Numbered from the stretch's first letter, positions 14,734 through 35,300 are shown. The stretch is 64,000 nt of DNA from Escherichia coli (GCF_051903065.1 NZ_CP178438.1), one strand, 5' to 3'. The notes: generated by a model not told the origin, from the letters alone. Made by a program: numbers and translations.

Positions 14734-15306
14734 TCAGAACTGGCCTGCTACGGGATACCAGGGGTTACCGGCGAGGCAACGGGCTTCCGGATCGCACACA
14801 CCACGACGATCGCGGGCGAAATCACTGAACGCCCAGATCAAATCTTTGAGGATGTCTTCGCAGTCCGGTGAACGACTGTCCAGCACCACATCCCGGGTTA
14901 TCTGTTTCTGGTACGGTGCCGCTTCCCCCGGTGACGCGAAGCCCAGTACGTTGCTCCAGGCATCCAGAATCAGCCGGTCCAGTTCGGGGCCGTCGAAATA
15001 CTCCTGTCTGACGCACAGCACCACGTGGTATTCCGGCTTTTCCGGATGACGGGTCAGGAGCCAGCAAAGGTCGCGTCCGGGTTTCGCATTCATCAGCGCA
15101 CTGACGGTTTCGATAAAATCCATACCAAACCAGGTCTGTCTGCTGTTGAAGGCGTTGTCATGTTCCCACGGCAGACGAAGCAGGATCCGCCGTATCCGTG
15201 AGCCGGACTGCTCACGCAGCGCACGCTCAAGGACGCCGATGACTTTGTTCTGATAAGATGGCCAGAAGGGTGCCAGGCTATAGTCGAAATAAGGGATAGC
15301 ATTCAT
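14734..15306 (-). CDS. YagK/YfjJ-family (inovirus Gp2-like) protein, paralog 1
   Basis: …KPEYHVVLCVRQEYFD… matches the H-x-H core of the other two paralogs; start moved to internal ATG 15306 (MNAIPYFDYSL…) with GGAG RBS. Confidence 0.55.
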   Translation of the reverse strand: MNAIPYFDYSLAPFWPSYQNKVIGVLERALREQSGSRIRRILLRLPWEHDNAFNSRQTWFGMDFIETVSALMNAKPGRDLCWLLTRHPEKPEYHVVLCVRQEYFDGPELDRLILDAWSNVLGFASPGEAAPYQKQITRDVVLDSRSPDCEDILKDLIWAFSDFARDRRGVCDPEARCLAGNPWYPVAGQF

Positions 15307-15553
15307 AAGATATGCTCCATTATGCGCAACCCACAACGCGCCCTGCCCGTGAATGAGCTGACGTGTTATGGCTTGCGGATGAGATTGATGGAATAAGTGA
15401 AGAACTGAAGCAGAACGGGAAGATAAGGGACAGAACACCGGATGCAGGTTCAGGGTGAATGATCTCCGTTGACTTCAGTTCACATCATTAATCATCGAGG
15501 TAAGTTTTTACCGACTAAGTGTTTCCGGGCCAGGAAACTCATGATTCAAACTT

Positions 15554-16120
15554 TCAGAAGTGAGGCTTACGAGGACGCCCTGCTGCAGGACGTTCAGGAA
15601 CTTCATTGCAGCCGTAGGCACACAGCCCGTCTTTTTGCTCTTCTTTCGCCAGATAATGCAGGGCACCGCGAATATTATTGATGCTTTCAGGATCGTTGTG
15701 GCGCACAGGAATGTTGATGTTGTATGTATAATGCGGCTGATATGTACAGCGGTGTGCCGAACCGCTGTTATGCGTAATAGACCGCCAGCATTCCGTAATC
15801 CGCTCCGCAAAGGGATATATTTTTTTAACCCTCTGACGATCGATCCAGAAAACCGCATGCGCATGAAAACCATGATCAACCGTCCATTCAATCACCCAGA
15901 AGAAGCCAACGATATTTTCAAATTGTTCTACCTGCTCCAGCAGCATACGCAACTGCAATTCAAGCCAGCGATGATCAGGTTGTAAGAAATCAGGCGTATC
16001 TTTCCTGTAGAAGAAATCCATGCGTAAGGCCCGCAGGCAGGAATAGCGTGCCATCATTTGATTGATGTGATTGTCAAGTAAAGCGGTAAAAAACCAGTTT
16101 GGTGTATAAGATTTAGGCAT
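15554..16120 (-). CDS. YagK/YfjJ-family (inovirus Gp2-like) protein, paralog 2
   Basis: 188-aa ORF; …DHGFHAHAVFWIDRQRVKK…; preceded by about 1 kb of AT-rich ORF-free DNA. Confidence 0.6.
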   Translation of the reverse strand: MPKSYTPNWFFTALLDNHINQMMARYSCLRALRMDFFYRKDTPDFLQPDHRWLELQLRMLLEQVEQFENIVGFFWVIEWTVDHGFHAHAVFWIDRQRVKKIYPFAERITECWRSITHNSGSAHRCTYQPHYTYNINIPVRHNDPESINNIRGALHYLAKEEQKDGLCAYGCNEVPERPAAGRPRKPHF

Positions 16121-17154
16121 GTTGATGACTCCTGAAAGTTAATGATGTTTTAAGCTCTGTGAGCGAATTAATGCTTTCGCTCATAATCAGATCTAAAACG
16201 GTAATAACTTACAGATGGTATTTATCAGGCATGCTGTAGCAGAATGAATACGACGGGTTATTAACGATACGCAGCATTATGCAGAAAGAAATGGATTATC
16301 TGATGGTATTTGCTAAAGAGATGAGATAAACGAGGAGCGAATAAAATACAGAATCAATAAACATCACGAAATACTGCAAAACACGCGATAAAAACCCACA
16401 ACCAGAAGGTTAAGAAATATATTTCGACCAATCAATCATAAACTACAAACTTGCTCTCAGTGGTTCTAAAAAAACGTGAACAAGGCCAACGCAATAAACT
16501 TATACGCCCTCATCCAATCTGTTCTTAAGGACATGAACGTTAACCGCACACATTACCAGAGTAAAAAATACCACTGGCATGATTTTTACTCTGCATCTTA
16601 AACAATACAACCCGAAACAAACATAATCAGGAATTCACTCTGTTAATTTCATTGTTTATCCTGCACTGTTAAACATGACGAAATCATGGACACCTTATCA
16701 AAGAGTAAACATTCAGTTAATCAGTGATGACAGAAGTATTGATATTTACCGGAATGGTTAAAACATATCAGATAAACAATCATTGTTAAGCAAATACAGC
16801 TCATGATGGATAAAATTAAAATAAATTATTATTTCACTGAAAACAGGAACAGAGAGTGAGTAAAGACAGGAAGTAAATAACAATAGAGATTATATCAAAA
16901 AGGGAGTGAGTATAATAATAGTAATAAACCTAAATTAAAAATATCCATGTTTTATGTAAATACAAATCTGTTTCATAATTATGTACAGAGGTTCGTTATA
17001 ACGAATCTGTAAGTAATTCAGTGTAATTGCTACCATATTAAAGGTGATCGCTCAGGTGTCAGCGCCAGCGATAATAAGACGGTCACCATTTGGATTTTCC
17101 GCTCCACCCAACATGTTGTTTCCTTAAGGTTCTCACACCAGAAATGACATCAAC

Positions 17155-17547
17155 ATGCTGAGCAGAGAGGACTTTTACATGATAAAGCAAATGCGCCAGC
17201 AGGGCGCGTACATTGTCGATATTGCGACTCAGATTGGTTGCTCTGAACGAACGGTCAGGCAATGGGTTATACGGGCGGACGTTCCATGCTGCGTTACTAC
17301 ATCCAGCCCAAACGTAAAATGCGTCCGTCAAAAAGAACAGTTCGCTTCGAAACTCAGCCTGGATACCAGCTCCAGCACGACTAGGGCGAAGTTGAGGTGG
17401 AGGTTGCCGGGCAACGGTGCAAAGTTAACTTTGCGGTTAATACGCTGGGGTTCTCCCGCCGCTTCCATGTCTTCGCCGCACCAAAACAGGATGCTGAGCA
17501 TACACCAGAGCAGGAACATCTGCAGCCGTTACCGAGTTCCGCATTAA
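17155..17547 (+). pseudogene. IS21-family istA fragment
   Basis: N-terminus MLSREDFYMIKQMRQQGAYIVDIATQIGCSERTVRQ matches IS21 IstA, then the frame decays; candidate IS21 left end TGTCAGCGCC at 17057. Confidence 0.6.
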
Positions 17548-17662
17548 GCGCCGTTTCGACAGTTAATTTCGTCAGCATACGGGAAAACTGATTGAGATCG
17601 GCCCCGGTTTTGAGGCCTTTAGCCAGTTCAGCCGCAAGGACTTTAAGCGTCTTTTCGTCCAC
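17534..17662 (-). pseudogene. IS256-family transposase N-terminal fragment
   Basis: MDEKTLKVLAAELAKGLKTGADLNQFSRMLTKLTVETALNAEL is the conserved IS256-family N-terminus; frame lost at the junction with the IS21 fragment. Confidence 0.55.
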
Positions 17663-17930
17663 AATCTACTTGTCTACGTTGTTGGAGTGAACATATCAAA
17701 AAACGGCAATTACACAATTTAAATTACAGTCTCTATGAGAACAGTTCAATTTTTTAACTCTCGTTTTCCTCCCTGGCGTTATATGCATAAGCAACTTGAA
17801 AGACCCGATGATAGTTATAATTTCAGGTTATGTCCATGACGACCAATTTGTAACTAAAACAATAAACGGTAACGCTGCCATATAAGCATCAAAAGCGAGC
17901 ATTACAGCAACATTCAACCGATTAGATGTA

Positions 17931-18371
17931 TCACTCATAATCAGAACAAGATGATGATGTGCCCTGAGATATAAGAAAATCATCAAGAGAACCTCCGGCT
18001 TTTATTGCTTCTGCAATAACAGAAGGCCGACGACCTTGTCCACTCCAGTACATTATTTGACCGTTATACTCATACCTGTACTTATTAGACTCTCCTGAAT
18101 CGTTTTTTCTGCCCGTCTGTAATTTTTTGCCAAATTCACGATACACATCTTCCGCCGTTACACCTGCGTCATCCATGTACTTTTTGATAATTGCCAAAGA
18201 ATCCTTCAACTCATTACGCTGCTCAATGGCCTTTTCAAGGTTATCCTTAACTTGATTGAAGTCTTCATCAGACATTTCCATGATCAACTTCCGGACAAGG
18301 TTGGAATTAAGAAGTGATGTACGAACAGTAGAGAGATCTTCATTCTCAACAGAAAACTTCTTCTTGCTCAT
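17931..18371 (-). CDS. H-NS-family nucleoid-associated protein (horizontally acquired paralog)
   Basis: 146 aa; C-terminal DNA-binding region …KYRYEYNGQIMYWSGQGRRPSVIAEAIKAGGSLDDFLISQ contains the H-NS TWTGQGR-type motif; N-terminal coiled-coil region. Confidence 0.8.
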   Translation of the reverse strand: MSKKKFSVENEDLSTVRTSLLNSNLVRKLIMEMSDEDFNQVKDNLEKAIEQRNELKDSLAIIKKYMDDAGVTAEDVYREFGKKLQTGRKNDSGESNKYRYEYNGQIMYWSGQGRRPSVIAEAIKAGGSLDDFLISQGTSSSCSDYE

Positions 18372-18500
18372 CTATCAATACTCTGCTTATCATTAACTTA
18401 TGATAAATCCTATCAGGTGATTTTTTATAAAAATAATGGCTACATCACAAAATGTGATACTTAATATTTACTTCATTCAAAGTGAGTGAACTTTCCCGGA

Positions 18501-19250
18501 TAGGCTAGCCCCCTGAATCTCCAGTCAACCAATATCACTTAAATAAGTGATAATCTTAATATTAGTTTTTAGACTGGTCATTGGAAAACAGATGATTGAT
18601 GCCTCAGGACCGGAGAAACTCAGACGGCATACTGCACAGGAAAAGATCGCTAATGTTCAGAAGAGCTTTGAACCAGGAATGACGGTCTCCCTCGTTGCCC
18701 GGCAACATGGTGTAGCAGCCAGTTACTTCTCTGGCGCAAGCAATACCAGGAGGGAAGTCTTACTGCGGTGACTGCTGGGGAACAGATCGTTCCTGCCTCT
18801 GAACTTGCTGCTGCCATAAGGCAGATTAAAGAACGCCAGCGCCTGCCCGGAACAAAACGATGGAAAATGAACTCATTAAAGAAGCCGTTGAATATGGACG
18901 TGCAAAAAGTGGATAGCGCACGCTCCCTTATTGCCGGGGTGATGCACTGGGCGGTCACTACCGGCGGCTTCAACAGTGAAACAGTACAGGACGTCATGCC
19001 AGGAGCGGTGGAACGCCGCTTCGGCAACGAGCTTCCGGCGTCTCCAGTGGAGTGGCTGACAGATAATGGTTCATGCTACCGGGCTAATGAAACACGCCAG
19101 TTCGCTCGGATGTTGGGACTTGAATCGAAGAACACGGCGGTGCGGAGTCCGGAGAGTAACAGAATAGCAGAGAGCTTCGTGAAAACGATAAAGCGTGACT
19201 ACATCGTGTTCATGCCCAAGCCAGATGTTAATGACGGCATTGCATAACCA
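18501..19250 (+). mobile_element. IS2 remnant (internally deleted and 3'-truncated)
   Basis: IS2 left end TAGGCTAGCCCCCTGAATCTCCAG; OrfA-like [44 protein letters not shown], frameshift, then OrfB C-terminal segment …[24 protein letters not shown]…KRDYI… with the OrfB N-terminal half missing. Confidence 0.7.
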
Positions 19251-19499
19251 TGCAGTAGCAATCGAACATTACAATGCAGCATAGTTCTAAGTTATCGCTC
19301 GCCGCAGGTATATATGCGGCAGCGGATCAGTAATGGGTTAAATGATAACAGATGTCTGGAAGTATAGGGAGAAATTCCCTGAGGGATTCCCAAAAAATTT
19401 AGTAAACCAATATCATATTGGTATACCGTTGTTGTAAAATGTTCAGCCCTGCGTCAAGTGACAAGGTGTTTAGTATGAGTGGGGAATGTCGGAACCTGT

Positions 19500-20113
19500 T
19501 TAGGATTCTGTGTAAATGCCTTTTTTCAGAAGTGACAGGCAGTCACCGAACTCGATAATAAAGCGGCTCATTGCCATACACCTGTCCTTCAACGACACCG
19601 TCCATTTCTGGGACGCAGACTGGATTGCCAGCCACACCACTTTTTTCACCGAGTCGTCTGTCGGGAACACTTTACGCTTTTTGATCGCATGGCGGATCAC
19701 ACTGTTTAGTGACTCGATGGCATTCGTCGTATAGCGCACTTTGCGAATGTCCGTCAGATAAGCGAAGAACGTGGTAAGATTCGGTCAGTTAGCCTGCCAG
19801 CTCCGACTTATCTAGTGCTTGCTAGCCTGTCTCTTCCGTGGGTGCCTGATTAAATCTCTTTCAGGTCGCGAGTGACGGCTTTGTAGTCCTTCCATGACAC
19901 GAAGCGCAGGCTGTTGCGCACCATATGCACGATGCATAACTGGATGCTGGCCTCCGGATATACTGTGTTGATGGCATCTGGAAAGCCTTTCAGGCTATCT
20001 ACACAGGTGATGAGGATATCGTTCAGACCGCGGTTTTTCAGTTCAGTCAGCACATTGAGCCAGAACTTCGACCCTGTACACGATTCTGTGTGAAACAACG
20101 GGGAGCAGGTCAT
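19500..20113 (-). pseudogene. IS256-family transposase, 5'-truncated and frameshifted
   Basis: Two pieces (…[33 protein letters not shown]…IVHMVRNS… and …RYTTNAIESLNSVIRHAIKKRKVFPTDDSVKK…) in different frames; N-terminal third absent here. Confidence 0.65.
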
Positions 20114-20127
20114 CGCTTCCCAACCCG

Positions 20128-21006
20128 TTATTTCAGCGTGCCGAACTGTTTGTCTTTCAGTGCATATAGTCGGTCGAACTCAGCATAGGGCTCTCCCGTT
20201 TCAGCCGCGTGCCGGGTTTTAGCATCCAGAAGGTCGGGTAAAGGGATCCTATGATTCAGTGAGTGGTAAAGATCATAACCACTGACACAGATAACCCGCT
20301 TCCCTTTACCAAAAGCCGTCAGGCCTTCAGGCGTAAAGCCCATCCAACTGATAAAAACACCGCGTGTCCAGGTTGCCTTGGTACTGAGCTTTCCTTCAAA
20401 TACATGGAGGTCGGCAGCCGACGTTCTTTTCTGATGCCACTTTGCCTCCATCAGGTAAAATTCATCATTCAGTCGGAAACTTCCGTCAATCTGTTCGCCT
20501 GTATTTCGGAAAGACGAACGGGGAGCAAGCTTAAAGATACTGAACAGTTCAGCAAGCCAGGCTTCAAACCGAAAACCACGTGGATGTGGCGGCAGAGATT
20601 TCATCTCGTTCATTTCAGCGATAAGTGAATGCCAGTCAACACCATGCCATGCCTGGACAGGCTTAACGCCTTTGGCTTCATCGGTGTCAGCGTTTTCTAA
20701 GCGGGAAATCAGTGCAAGATAGTCATTACGGCTTTGTTCAGCCTGTTCAGGCATGGATTCCGTTTTATACTGCCAGAGCGCACCAAGAACCCGCAGAGCG
20801 GTCTCACGATCAACCTGTTTCAGCAAGCATCTAACTCGTTTGGCTTTTGACGTCCCCTCTTTCTGATAACGTTCATCATCAATATCAATGTTCAATTCTT
20901 CATCGAAAAAAGCAGACAAGGTGCGGTTAGAGAAATCCAGTATCCAGCCAGGATCGCTCTCGAACACAATATTAAACAGCCTCAAATCCTGCATTTTCAG
21001 TTTCAC
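20128..21006 (-). CDS. Mrr-like restriction endonuclease-fold protein with unknown N-terminal domain
   Basis: 292 aa; C-terminal …[25 protein letters not shown]… is a PD-(D/E)xK (D…E-A-K) core resembling the Mrr catalytic domain; N-terminal 130 aa unassigned. Confidence 0.55.
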
Positions 21007-21333
21007 GCCTACCTCCTTTTTTCACAGTATAACGGGATGAAAGTGGGGGAGGAAATGAGTCAGAACCTGTACACCAGCATTAGGGGATTCCGCGTCTGGT
21101 ACAAAGCAGACTATGAGAAGAGAGACGCTATAACATTTGAGTCCTACCAATCGATCTGTTCATTTCTATGAATGGCAGTAAATGCAAATAACCAGAACAA
21201 CCAAAGGTTTTTCGACTTATGTGTCACGAACGGAAGTAGATGGCAATCCATTGCATTACTTCAGGACGACTTTTCAGAAAGCGAGCTAAGGGCGTTGGCA
21301 TAAACTCAGGCATCGGATGCTGTTTTACAGGGT

Positions 21334-22065
21334 TCACCTGCCATCCAGTAGACGCCCCAGCCCACGACTGCAACCATAATTACGTTGACCAGAACCGTCA
21401 TGCTGCTTCGTCTCATACTTCACGAGATAACGGGCTCTCTCCATGGCTTTCTGCATCGCTTCCACATCACCACGCTTGACCCAGAGAACAGCGGATCCAC
21501 CAGATTTTTTGTCAGAATCCTTCCGGGTATCAGAACATCCACCAGGCACAGGCGTATCATCGGAAGAAGGGCGAGCATCAGATGATGTCGGTTTACGGAA
21601 AGGCGTCCGCCTGGAAAAATGAACCAGTCCATTACCCTGCCAGGGCTCAAGATGCAGAGCACTGCACCATGCCAGCTTGATCAGTGTCGCCAGCGAAGAA
21701 GGAACGGTGAAATCCCCTGGCGAGCACCAGGTATCTTTGTTGAGCAGTAATATCACGTGATAATGTTTCCTGCCTTTTTCCTTGCCAAACTCCCGACACC
21801 AGAAATAACGCAGAGTGGTTGCACGCACACGCTTGTTGGCACGTCGTTTTTTCCGCTGGTAAGCCTGAATTTTTGCTTTCAGGGATGCAAAAAAACGAGA
21901 AATCACCGCTGAATCTAAATCGGTATCCATGATGGTGGCAGGCATATACTCAGGGAAACGTAAATCCACCCGGATTAACGAGACGGCACGGTGTTGCGCC
22001 AGGGCACCGTTGAGAATACTTTCAAAACGGGATAACCAGTAAGCATTGTGTATTGGTTGATTCAT
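21334..22065 (-). CDS. YagK/YfjJ-family (inovirus Gp2-like) protein, paralog 3
   Basis: 243 aa; …KHYHVILLLNKDTW… core; preceded by about 1.5 kb of AT-rich ORF-free DNA. Confidence 0.6.
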   Translation of the reverse strand: MNQPIHNAYWLSRFESILNGALAQHRAVSLIRVDLRFPEYMPATIMDTDLDSAVISRFFASLKAKIQAYQRKKRRANKRVRATTLRYFWCREFGKEKGRKHYHVILLLNKDTWCSPGDFTVPSSLATLIKLAWCSALHLEPWQGNGLVHFSRRTPFRKPTSSDARPSSDDTPVPGGCSDTRKDSDKKSGGSAVLWVKRGDVEAMQKAMERARYLVKYETKQHDGSGQRNYGCSRGLGRLLDGR

Positions 22066-23579
22066 GATGAGAGATCTCCGTTGATTTGGATTGACTTCAC
22101 ATCATTAATCACCGCGGTAAAACTTTACGGCATCCGGCATTGAGCAATGCTACAACTTTCGGATTAAGAGTGATTGAAACGGAACAAACCATCCCGGAAC
22201 AAAAAGATAATTCTACACGCAGGGTAAAAACACTCAAGAACAGCGAATGGATTTAAAAACGACATGGACAACGAGAAAAGTCAGAAGGGAAAAGGATCCA
22301 CAGAACATTCAAACAAAACACCAGAAACGCAACCAGAACGCTTCCTGGTAATGCAAATCAACAACAACCCCAAAACCTACAGCTTAATCACACAACTCAA
22401 TCACGGATGCGAATGACACGTTTAAAACCTGTTTACAGATAACGCCGTTACACGATCATCCCCATCAGAATCGATTTTCCCTTCCTGAAAGCGTTACGTT
22501 TCACTACGCACCATAAAAACGATTAACCATCGATAACGTAAACTTCATCTGAATCAAAACACCAAAACCGTTCATCACACTTTCGCAATGCAAGAAGAGT
22601 CACATCATGACGAAAACAATGACCTTACACGGAAAAGAAAACGTCAGGAATCGTTAATGCCTCAATCTGATTGTTATCAAAACATCCAGAAAGTCGTTTA
22701 ACAGAATCGTCGTAAGCACATCGAAAAGAACGTCAGATTACTTCAGGAAAGTTCGGGTTGATTTAGCGTAAAGATACTTTTCTCATGCTAACGTCGAAAC
22801 TCGAAATATCAGGAAAGGTTAAACGTAACATCAGTAAAATCGAATAGCAGATTGATTGCTGAAGCAGAAAGGTTTTACAGCAGCATTAAACTGATTTTAG
22901 CTAACGTAAAGATTTACTAAACTGGATGTATTTCAGACAAAGCAATGTGTACAGCAATGCTTAACGAAAACACTTGTAGAAGTGTTTATGAAAATACGTG
23001 TATAACACTTACTGAAATGCTTAGTAAAAATACGTGTATATAGTATCATACCGACATTCTCAACTCTTCCAAACATCCATGCAGACTGAATGTTGATTAC
23101 CCGTTTTCACATCAGGCATGGTTCTTTACTGACCAAAAAACAAACTGGTTTACTCTTGAATTATTTTCTCTACCTCAGAAAACATGGTCTCAGGAATCTG
23201 TTATGGCTTCGTAGTTTCTGTTGTTCTTTTCATAAAAGTTATAAGTTATTGTCATAATCATACGATAATCACTTTATGTTAGTTTTTACTGTTACACGCT
23301 ACTGACTTTTTCAGTCATTGCCAGAAAGGGGCTCTTTTTACTTCCATTTCACCACTCAACAAATGCAAAACTCGTCCAGTAAAGCGGACCACCACTTGCT
23401 CACAAGCAACGAATCGTCTCCAGGAACAGCCCTCAAACATTGCAGAAACAAAAACAACAAAACCCTCATTATCACTGATGTTCGGAAAATTTCCATGACC
23501 CAAAAAACGAAATTTAAATGAGACGCATTATCATGCGTGTGATCAAAAAGACGTTATGGTAGCTTTCAGTTAAATGGTG

Positions 23580-32346: not shown

Positions 32347-35300
32347 TTATATCTGCCCGCCTACACCTTTAAACTTCTCAATAAACGCGACGATCTTCTG
32401 GAAAACCGTCTGTTTTTTCGTCTTATATTGCGGATTTAACGGACTGAGTTTTGGCAATGTCTCGTTTAATTCCGTGCCATTTTCGGTTGCGTATTCGCGT
32501 TTTAAAGACGTGCGAATATAGCGTTTCGCCGCCTCTTCATTGAGATTTTCTTCTTTGATCAATGCTGCTGCTTCACGTTGCTGTTCGCGTTGAGCAAAGG
32601 TAAAAAACGCGTCAATGATGCTGGCTTTATCCGGCAAATCATCCAGGTTCGTTTGCTGAATAAAATCGACCACCAATCCTTCTTTGGCACGGTTCCCAAG
32701 GCTTGAACGAATTAAGCGTTTGACCTCTTCGGTCATTTCGCCCTTACCTTTGTTTTGTCTGTTGTGTTCGAAAATCAGTCCAAGGATATAATCCAGGTTT
32801 ATTTCCTGAGACTTCAGCAAATCGACCTCAAAAACCACGTCATCCCAGTCGGTGGTTGATTTTTCTTTTTTGTCAGCTTCTTTCTCACGGCGCTGCCAGT
32901 CACGAATATCGTTATAGGCTGAACGGTAATCCTGAATCTTGCGATCAGCAGGGAGACGAATCGTTTGTAATTCAGCGAACTTTTCATCATCCACATAATG
33001 TTCTGCTTTGAATTTTTCTACCGCAACAGGATCGCTAAGATCGATTTGTTGCAGGGCTTTCAGCATGGCAAATTCATCATAGTTTTGCAGGATGTTCTCG
33101 GCACGCAGGTATTCACCAAACAGTTTTACGAAGTCTTTCTTCTCTTTTTCACTTTCAATATTGGCAGGGTCAGGGAACCGTTGTTCCAGTTCTGAAACTA
33201 CTGCCATAAAGCCGCGTTTAGCTTCACCAGTGGCAGCATCAGTAAAGCCTTCCATATACTCTGCATAACTCTTTTCTAACACCACATTTTTGGTATTTTT
33301 ATCACCAAACAGCGTTATGGCATCAATGGTTGAGCGTTCCAGATCCCGGAAAGTGACGATGTTACCGAAGGTTTTAGTGGCGTTATAAATGCGGTTGGTG
33401 CGGGAAAATGCCTGCATCAGGCCGTGAAAACGCAAGTTTTTATCGACGAATAGCGTGTTCAATGTTGGAGCATCGAAGCCGGTTAAAAACATCCCCACGA
33501 CAATTAACAGATCGATATCTTGATTTTTAACCCGTTGGGCTAAATCACGATAGTAGTTCTGAAAACCGTTACTGTCGGTGCTGAAGTTAGTTTTAAAATA
33601 GCTGTTATACTCACGAATTGCAGCGTCAAGAAACTCTTTAGCACTGCTGTCCATTGCGCTGGTATCAAAAGTTTCATCGGAAATTTCACCAATGGCATTT
33701 TGCTCTTCATTGGCGGCAAAGGAGAAGATTGTCGCAACACGCAGCGGTTTATAAGTAGCCGATTTATTAGCTGCTTCCTCTTGTAACCGTTTAAACGTAG
33801 CGTAATAGGCTTTCGCGGCATCCACGCTACTCACTGCCAGCATGGCATTAAAGCCTTTGGAACTTGGGAAAGTACGGTGGGTCTTCTGGCGGAAGTTATT
33901 CAGAATATATTGCGTAATTTCCTGTATACGCATGGGATGAAGAAACGCCTGCTGATTTTCAGCCGCACTCAGTTTTTTCTCGTCGGTTTCTGTCTCTAAA
34001 GACTTAAACTGTGGCCGCACATCGTTGTAGTCCACCTTGAATTTGAGCACTTTTTCATCACGAATCGCATCGGTAATCACATATGAATGCAATTCACGAC
34101 CAAATACGCTGGCGGTCGTTTCTGAGCCTAAAGCGTTTTCCGGGAAAATAGGGGTACCGGTAAAACCAAACTGATAATAGCGTTTGAATTTCTTCTTCAG
34201 ATTTTTCTGCGCTTCTCCAAACTGGCTGCGGTGACATTCATCAAATATAAACACCACTTGCTGATTGTATACAGGCAGGTCGCTTTCTGCTTTCATCAGG
34301 TTATTAAGTTTCTGAATAGTGGTGACGATAATTTTGTTATCGTCCTTATCCAGATTTCGTTTAAGACCTGCTGTATTTTCCGAGCCGTTAACACTATCTG
34401 GCGAAAAACGCTGATATTCCTTCATGGTCTGGTAATCGAGGTCTTTCCTGTCGACCACAAAGAAGACTTTATCAATAAAGTCCAGTTCTGTTGCCAGACG
34501 TGCGGCTTTAAAGCTGGTCAGGGTTTTACCAGAACCGGTTGTGTGCCAGATAAAGCCACCGCTTTCGGGGGTAGACCAGTTTTTCGCTTTATAGGAGCTG
34601 TTGATTTTCCATAAGATACGCTCAGTGGCGGCAATCTGGTACGGTCGCATCACTAGTAGCGTTTGGCTAATATCGAACACGCTGTAGTTCACTAAGACAT
34701 TAAGCAGAGTATGTTTCTGGAAAAAGGTAGCGGTAAAGTCTTTGAGGTCTTTAATCAGCGTGTTGTCTGATTTCGCCCAATTCATGGTGAAATCAAAACT
34801 GTTTTTATCGCGCTTTGTGGTGTTGGCAAAATAACGGGTATCGGTGCCGTTAGAAATGACAAACAGTTGCAGATACTTAAACAGGGAATTTTCGCTGTTA
34901 AAACTCTCTTTACTGTAACGATGTATTTGGTTGAAAGCCTCACGAATCGCCACGCCGCGCTTTTTCAGTTCGATTTGTACCAGTGGTAAGCCATTAACCA
35001 GGATCGTGACGTCATAACGGTTAGCATGAGAACCCGCCTGTTCAAACTGCTGGATAATCTGCACCTTATTGCGCATGAGATTCTTTTTATCTATCAGATA
35101 GATATTTTCAAGACGCCCGTCATCAAAAATAAAGTCGCAGATATAGTCGATATGAATTTTACGGGTTTTATCCAGGATGCCATCGCTGGGGTTGTCCAGA
35201 TACTGCTCCGTGAAACGCCGCCACTCGCTGTCATTAAACACCACACCATTGAGGTTCTGAAGCTGTTCCCGAACATTGGACAGCATCGCCGACTGTGATT

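Follow-up and report, generated by a model that had tools for sequence, protein, structure and literature searches.

The YagK/YfjJ proteins of Escherichia coli K-12, YfjJ in the island CP4-57 and YagK in CP4-6 (Pfam PF11726, YagK_YfjJ_C, formerly DUF3296 or Inovirus_Gp2), are the closest described relatives of four genes, here called A, B, C and D, that lie in a stretch of 64,000 nucleotides from E. coli (GCF_051903065.1, NZ_CP178438.1; the whole stretch is referred to below as the window). The resemblance extends to sequence and setting: C is 30% identical to YfjJ, the profiles of A and B match YfjJ, and the type of island and the proximity of alpA, a gene for an AlpA-type helix-turn-helix (HTH) protein, are the same. 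The K-12 islands differ in having a single copy each, preceded by yfjI (DUF3987), whereas the window has four copies, two of which lack catalytic residues, and has no yfjI. It is close to certain that A, B, C and D make up one YagK/YfjJ superfamily, a branch of the HUH rolling-circle Rep proteins, and A and D keep the fold with the catalytic residues lost. No functional test of YfjJ or YagK was found in the literature.

HUH enzymes nick single-stranded DNA using a metal held by two histidines and a tyrosine that becomes covalently attached to the DNA. The HUH and tyrosine motifs of the rolling-circle initiators, including Ff gpII, phiX174 gpA, Rep and NS1 of adeno-associated virus (AAV) and parvoviruses, and SIRV1 ORF119, occur in the same order as in the proteins described here. 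The two tyrosines of C, in a Y-x-x-x-Y arrangement, resemble those of phiX174 gpA, which has the same spacing, and NS1, AAV Rep and SIRV1 ORF119 are among the top structural matches to the models of A and D. The paralogs differ from these initiators in being small, single-domain proteins with no fused helicase, in being nearly absent from phage genomes, and in having no sequence-level match to solved structures; a search of Protein Data Bank (PDB) sequences with C and the B profile returned no matches. Catalytically inactive HUH-fold domains have a precedent in papillomavirus E1 and SV40 large T antigen, where they serve as origin-binding domains. Those domains are fused to helicases and belong to eukaryotic viruses, whereas the inactive A and D are separate small proteins encoded beside intact paralogs.

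An inovirus prophage would be expected to carry single-strand-binding, coat and Zot-like assembly genes. The context here is instead a CP4-type island, with no filamentous-phage genes among the 51 annotated features in the 39 kb around the paralogs, and no phage structural or single-strand-binding genes annotated near them. The label ‘inovirus Gp2’ is misleading, because the genes belong to chromosomal islands and are not replicases of small rolling-circle plasmids. PICMI satellites are described as replicating by rolling circle, with no mention of a Gp2 or HUH protein. A nearer parallel comes from the transfer-messenger RNA (tmRNA)-associated islands I23, I44 and I55 of Pseudomonas, which are transduced by a jumbo phage and in which an inovirus-Gp2-like gene, alpA, intY and RadC are likely core genes; the open reading frame (ORF) number of the Gp2-like gene comes just before that of alpA, and the cargo of these islands includes defence genes, although they have no machinery for their own transfer (PMC12595487). 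These islands differ in genus, in integration site and in having a single Gp2-like gene, and they are likened to A-D by description.

The reference annotation was that of NZ_CP136025.1 (chromosome of E. coli GDSC2BY4G), in which the 9.4 kb around the genes are 100% identical and from which the PGAP coding sequences (CDSs) were taken; the whole 9.4-kb arrangement is present in 116 genomes. The paralogs and alpA, in the order of transcription, are as follows (aa, amino acids):

Paralog C: 21334-22065, minus strand, 243 aa, named ‘inovirus Gp2 family protein’ by PGAP
Paralog B: 15554-16120, minus strand, 188 aa, named ‘YagK/YfjJ domain-containing protein’ by PGAP
Paralog A: 14734-15306, minus strand, 190 aa, named ‘hypothetical protein’ by PGAP
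AlpA-type HTH gene (alpA): 14429-14665, minus strand, 78 aa, between A and D
Paralog D: 13674-14186, minus strand, 170 aa, named ‘UCP030791 family putative phage-derived protein’ by PGAP

The original prediction, made from the sequence alone, had delimited A, B and C exactly as they appear among the ORFs and PGAP CDSs of the minus strand. It was also right in seeing A and B as a tandem next to alpA, with 247 nt between B and A and the alpA gene starting 68 nt past A. Its count of three copies was too low, as D is a fourth. No further family member was detected in the window when ORFs of at least 45 aa were searched with the family profiles (E ≤ 1e-3).

The kinship is most easily seen for C, which is a canonical YfjJ-like member: it matches PF11726 (1.7e-36), PF23343 (REP_ORF2-G2P; 3.3e-8) and PHROG replication-initiation families (E down to 7e-8), and aligns with K-12 YfjJ over its whole length (E 3e-27), with HYH and Y-x-x-K motifs common to both. 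B belongs to a divergent subfamily, with weak or borderline Pfam matches (PF23343, 2.7e-4; PF11726, 8.9e-4), and several of its 50-60% identical relatives carry PF11726 in precomputed tables. A had no match in Pfam, NCBIfam or PHROGs, and a word-indexed search of 5.8 billion clusters returned E. coli orthologs only. A phmmer search of 1.84 billion representatives gave its own orthologs, two full-length relatives at 32-34% identity and one unrelated repeat protein, and it was only after these rare relatives had joined the profile that the family link of A emerged. The enlarged profile retrieved a handful more relatives (P0200-P0205), and the two collections together hold about seven full-length relatives at 27-34% identity, most of which match PF11726. 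Across the A family, PF11726 is matched at E ≤ 1e-3 by 5 of 12 aligned sequences (best 4.5e-50) and at E ≤ 0.1 by six of the seven relatives from outside E. coli; A itself reaches P0187 at E 4e-15, and P0187 and similar relatives match PF11726. An hhalign comparison with a narrow, E. coli-only A profile gave 0.4%.

The predicted fold of A points the same way. Its AlphaFold2 model (pLDDT 84.7, pTM 0.84) was searched against AFDB50 with Foldseek, and among the matches listed, ranks 8-50, which are preceded by the orthologs of A itself, are named ‘Inovirus Gp2 family’ or ‘YagK/YfjJ C-terminal domain’ except for five named prophage protein or transposase (query-normalised TM-scores 0.62-0.77, E 1e-9 to 1e-6). 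One UniProt ortholog of A already bears the family name. D was also modelled (pLDDT 86.4), and a D-only profile run against the 2698 ORFs of the fetched loci found C (5e-10), a C-like protein (1.5e-15) and A-like proteins (1e-6); multiple alignments of D are collinear with the other paralogs across the whole domain. D has no match to PF11726 in a Pfam-A scan, and its assignment to UCP030791 (PF27752) comes from the PGAP name on an identical protein and from precomputed PF27752 matches on an E. coli ortholog and distant relatives.

For profile-profile comparison, the B alignment was scanned against one genome per species, which gave 34 loci across Enterobacterales, and the ORFs of these loci were classified with the family profiles; the resulting family alignments were compared with hhalign. 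A and C were linked at 97.7% (E 2e-12), D and C at 98.4% (E 6e-15), D and A at 95.7%, and B and C at 94.1% (E 1.2e-7, 176 columns), while K-12 YfjJ matched the A profile at 9e-16 and the B profile at 3e-7. The divergence noted in the original prediction is real, with nothing significant in pairwise BLASTP among A, B and C, and its assignment of all three to the YagK/YfjJ group stands. Profile searches bring them together unevenly: a direct Pfam search fails for A, and intermediates, profile-profile comparison and, for A, the fold succeed.

The catalytic motifs divide the four proteins into two pairs. C has an intact HUH motif (H101-Y-H103) and a two-tyrosine motif (R-Y213-L-V-K-Y217-E-T-K, with K216 in Y-x-x-K), and B is likewise intact (H83, H86-A-H88 and H-Y156-L-A-K159-E-E-Q-K). 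Across the B family (24 relatives at ~50% identity), H88, Y156 and K159 never vary, and H83 and H86 hardly do. A has E92-Y93-H94, with a single histidine, at the HUH position, and D162 (in S161-D162-F-A-R-D) at the position of the catalytic tyrosine. The first HUH position varies between Glu, Cys and Phe in the A subfamily, and the replacement motif S-D-(F/M)-(A/V)-R-D-R is kept between members that are only 30% identical; HYH and S/D-Y-x-x-K are present in YfjJ and in P0205, a bridging relative. D has I89-R90-C91 at the HUH position and L160 aligned with the catalytic tyrosine, after which the shortened chain soon ends. Both HUH-position histidines are missing from the D family, with a single histidine in only 1 of 12 aligned sequences (that of locus L002). 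Y150 of D was considered as a substitute catalytic residue and rejected, as it lies some ten residues before the catalytic position in a protein without the metal-binding histidines. The core segments quoted for A, B and C in the original prediction are thus homologous in profile and multiple alignments, and the H-x-H said to be shared by all three is found in B and C only.

RefSeq already has the right names for B and C, and UniProt names an ortholog of A. What is new at the level of annotation and hypothesis is that D (UCP030791) belongs to the same superfamily, that A and D are conserved non-catalytic members, that the genes keep a fixed order by alpA, and that two conserved non-coding elements accompany them. 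The annotations of A (‘hypothetical protein’) and D (‘UCP030791’) can accordingly be assigned to the superfamily. The surprise for a specialist is limited, because the genes are common and already named.

AlpA, as Kirby, Trempy and Gottesman are said to have found in 1994, activates intA and the excision of CP4-57. The alpA product in the window carries Phage_AlpA and HTH_17 (precomputed Pfam on an identical or near-identical protein) and falls below the cut-off for the TIGR01764 excisionase domain (E 4e-4). Among the 34 loci, alpA lies on the same strand and within 1.5 kb of the B-type gene in 30, preceding it in 16 and following it in 14, frequently at a distance of 39 nt, and a D-type gene follows in nine of these B-alpA loci. 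The order (B or C)-A-D by alpA recurs in relatives that are ~30% identical, such as L002 (alpA, C-like, A-like, D-like) and L004 (alpA, B-like, one inserted opposite-strand gene, A-like, D-like, DUF2913 gene). Variants within E. coli comprise C-A-alpA (EC8), B-A-alpA (W60, Esc20), YfjI...B-A-alpA-D (MJ-T, XH987) and, as in the window, C...B-A-alpA (STEC434); the order in K-12 is alpA-yfjI-yfjJ. A conserved downstream partner for each paralog, raised in the original prediction, was found in part: B is linked to alpA, and C is followed by variable cargo, namely a nuclease gene, an insertion sequence (IS2) with ireA, an acyltransferase gene, or A-alpA. On its other side, C has constant neighbours: a gene for a 376-407-aa hypothetical protein and then the block with the YfjP GTPase gene. 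A universal downstream partner of D was looked for and rejected, since the ECs1377-family gene that follows D here (gene E) is found only in E. coli (L005, L046 and L047, and not in other genera), a DUF2913 gene takes its place in three other loci, and different genes follow elsewhere.

Two further observations concern the array. A YfjI-family (DUF3987) gene precedes B in MJ-T (L045, 7520-9124) and XH987 (L049, 5986-7395) and precedes yfjJ in K-12; if YfjI were a helicase or primase partner of the nickase-like proteins, the island studied here would lack that partner. Multi-copy YagK/YfjJ arrays are not peculiar to the window, because the O157-type island of E. coli 89-3156 (L047, 3289-8498) carries three genes annotated as YagK/YfjJ, of which one is cut off by the locus edge and another is only a 65-aa fragment; D and E come after them. 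Interspersed there are two zinc-ribbon genes and a copy of IS600, and neither A nor alpA lies within the 8.5 kb fetched.

The conserved non-coding elements are the following:

AT-rich element, TTAATWTAGGTTWWTTAMTATWATT: core 16914-16938 (25 nt) within a ~42-nt block at 16897-16939, minus strand, ~800 nt upstream of B
Leader element, copy 1: 22061-22128, minus strand, ~65 nt, comprising the leader, ribosome-binding site and start codon of C
Leader element, copy 2: 15449-15511, minus strand, in the B-A spacer ~140 nt upstream of the ATG of A, with CTG where the C copy has ATG

Loci of Buttiauxella, Atlantibacter, Citrobacter, Enterobacter, Mixta and one metagenome-assembled genome (MAG) share the ~42-nt block at 86-91% identity, with B proteins that are only ~50% identical. 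The 25-nt core of the block, which contains ATTAAT-ATA-ATTAAT and an exact TATAAT, also precedes B, on the same strand, in nine further genome-contig loci, in a MAG of 95% identity (L005) and in six E. coli loci besides this one. The element may act as promoter, operator or origin. The two leader copies form a direct repeat of 74-79% identity in front of proteins that are only ~14% identical, and their core, GATTAATGATGTGAA...TCAACGGAGATC, shows no variation among the nine aligned E. coli sequences. A copy stands upstream of A whether B or C precedes A (L039 compared with L043-L045), and the ~65-nt leader may be either a regulatory site common to both genes or the scar left by a recombination event. 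An N-terminally extended form of A, starting at GTG 15438 or CTG ~15453, was rejected, as neither frame nor sequence is conserved in other E. coli islands.

The paralogs are frequent in E. coli, each occurring in 29-48% of complete genomes, and the values of dN/dS, which come from 5-7 distinct alleles per gene and hence from a small sample, are low:

A: 1976 of 5426 complete E. coli genomes, median pairwise dN/dS 0.21
B: 1572 of 5426 genomes, median pairwise dN/dS 0.29
C: 1878 of 5426 genomes, median pairwise dN/dS 0.36
D: 2600 of 5426 genomes, median pairwise dN/dS 0.44, the highest
alpA: median pairwise dN/dS 0.07

Every paralog also has its own orthologs in other Enterobacterales or metagenomes at ~30-50% identity. 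Low dN/dS, frequency and shared order together argue against both diversifying selection and pseudogene decay, and the four paralogs are old, constrained lineages under purifying selection.

These data bear on the explanation offered in the original prediction, that the clustered copies reflect diversifying selection or modular exchange. A local diversification of the copies, or their exchange as modules between islands, under diversifying selection, would find some encouragement in the coexistence of island variants with C-A-alpA, B-A-alpA or both, in the IS fragments, hns paralog and nuclease gene that lie between B and C, in the L047 array, and in the leader common to C and the region upstream of A, which could be a recombination site. 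The selection part is not supported, given the dN/dS of all four genes and the orthologs that each has outside E. coli in the same order; moreover, because the paralogs lie below BLAST detection of each other, the duplications must long predate the island. The exchange part survives in a narrower form. That one island has B as well as C is most likely due to a mosaic assembly of two island variants rather than a local duplication, so that exchange may account for the co-occurrence of B and C and not for the origin of the paralogs. As a full account of the copies, this explanation is unlikely.

We give about an even chance to the explanation that the cluster consists of four anciently diverged HUH Rep-like paralogs of which B and C are nickases and A and D their non-catalytic DNA-binding partners. 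Its functional part, that B or C nicks the excised island with A and D as partners, is extrapolated from motifs and gene order and is clearly the less probable half of what it proposes, well short of an even chance. According to this model, AlpA would switch on excision, and the intact paralog co-transcribed with it (B or C) would nick one strand of the excised island. The nick would be site-specific and proceed through a covalent 5'-phosphotyrosine, with the AT-rich element upstream of B as a candidate site, and would either start rolling-circle amplification or yield a single strand that a helper phage or conjugative plasmid could transfer. The part of A and D would be that of non-catalytic subunits that bind the origin or have a regulatory task, in the manner of the E1 and SV40 large T antigen domains. 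CP4-type islands are present in a large share of E. coli genomes and carry defence, virulence and resistance cargo. Among the core genes beside the excision activator alpA, those for the YagK/YfjJ proteins alone are nuclease-like, and they come as a set: one or two intact HUH nickase-like genes and two conserved, catalytically dead paralogs, with conserved non-coding elements just upstream.

A more specific version would have CP4-type islands, which are not known to possess machinery for replication or transfer, use a heteromeric HUH complex for mobilisation, in which one active nickase (B or C) is joined by the dead A and D as specificity or origin-binding subunits, the whole being switched on with AlpA and the AT-rich element serving as origin. 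We regard this as a long shot; if it were true, the common ‘cryptic prophages’ would turn out to be mobilisable or to resemble satellites, and their Rep assembly would be of a new kind.

Several results weigh against the nickase model. The family is indeed common in CP4-type islands, as the original prediction had it, and no functional study of any of its members was found in the literature. The window has no helicase or primase gene alongside the paralogs, and the YfjI gene is absent. Some direct links within the family are weak (hhalign A-B 19%, B-D 1%), B being tied to the others only via C and YfjJ, and the structural match scores are modest. A tblastn search of 50,697 phage records found C in one and B in two, and C-like genes are present on 64 of 72,556 plasmids, almost all of them large and not small rolling-circle plasmids. 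A role as stand-alone replicase is doubtful because the homologs are nearly absent from phages and, on plasmids, are confined almost entirely to large replicons. DNA folding of the two conserved elements revealed no significant hairpin (z-scores +0.4 to -1.1) and hence no support for an origin hairpin. The candidate cis elements could simply be promoters; promoter and terminator scans did no better than on shuffled sequence, and neither element stands out in the promoter scan. The small number of alleles behind the dN/dS values also counts here.

It is also conceivable, though a little less so than local diversification or exchange, that none of the four proteins is a nuclease and that they are domesticated Rep-fold DNA-binding regulators of island genes, acting for example with AlpA. 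Such a role would sit well with the conservation of two proteins that clearly lack catalytic residues, with the lack of a replication helicase in the window, and with the operator-like conserved leader in front of A and C and the other element in front of B. The difficulty lies with B and C, whose catalytic residues are kept across ~50% divergence and in YfjJ; catalysis that could be dispensed with is hard to square with this invariance.

The position of the genes at the edge of a region of defence cargo is compatible with an anti-mobile-element function, directed at incoming replicons of the single-stranded or rolling-circle type, which the Rep-like nickases would attack or titrate. C is followed here by a restriction-endonuclease gene, yfjJ of K-12 by the abpAB defence genes (the literature also places yfjJ beside abpAB), and other copies by dnd or CHAT/DUF3800 cargo. 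What follows C is nevertheless variable and often unrelated to defence (A-alpA, ireA or an acyltransferase gene), the partner that stays constant is alpA rather than a defence gene, and PADLOC found no defence-system model for any of the nine proteins submitted, the paralogs included. We consider such a function improbable.

That A and D are decaying, functionless remnants, in effect pseudogenes, is hardly credible: the loss of catalytic residues, the many frameshifted or truncated A alleles in databases and the dN/dS of D speak for it, and are outweighed by full-length A in ~1860 and full-length D in ~2160 E. coli genomes, by dN/dS well below 1, by replacement motifs conserved between relatives only 30% identical, and by confident AlphaFold models of both proteins.

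Beyond the paralogs, the island is of the CP4 type, with one flank made up of genes for a YfjP-like GTPase, a WYL-type HTH protein, DUF905, DUF932, antirestriction, RadC/JAB and YeeU/CbtA proteins, and the other of variable cargo and much IS debris. All genes of the cluster are transcribed from the minus strand in the order C, restriction-endonuclease gene, IS256/IS3 fragments, hns paralog, ~0.8 kb of non-coding AT-rich DNA, B, A, alpA, 52-codon ORF, D and E. The neighbours of the paralogs are:

Restriction-endonuclease gene: 20128-21006, minus strand, with only a faint Mrr_cat Pfam match on record
hns paralog (H-NS/StpA-like, 146 aa): 17931-18371, minus strand, between B and C with IS256/IS3 fragments on either side
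Hydrophobic 52-aa ORF: 14274-14432, minus strand, its start overlapping the alpA stop by 4 nt, a hypothetical protein in PGAP
Gene E, ECs1377 family: 12962-13585, minus strand, directly downstream of D (NCBIfam NF052300, 3.4e-96; PHROG 24243, 4e-57)

The placement of C upstream of an Mrr-like nuclease gene was correct as to position, C lying 327 nt upstream of the restriction-endonuclease gene with the faint Mrr_cat match. In other E. coli islands PGAP places the 52-codon ORF at the corresponding site, and a Pfam scan of gene E gave a non-significant winged-helix match only. The hns paralog may be an island-borne xenogeneic silencer. The ~1.5 kb upstream of C (22066-23579) have no annotated gene here and are 74-86% conserved in other E. 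coli islands, where PGAP annotates a 531-nt ORF on the opposite strand; Rfam has no match in this part of the window. An Rfam scan of 12-26 kb detected a group II intron only (Intron_gpII domain at 12218-12304, 64.9 bits); the intron (10691-12304, plus strand), which has an ltrA reverse-transcriptase/maturase ORF, lies within an IS3-family transposase remnant. At the right end of the island, fimH lacks its N-terminus and is truncated by ISKpn26 (about 33428-35111 in the window; 35529-37212 in L001), and the type 1 fimbrial operon is apparently mostly missing in this strain, as the annotation shows no further fim gene from the island to gntP.

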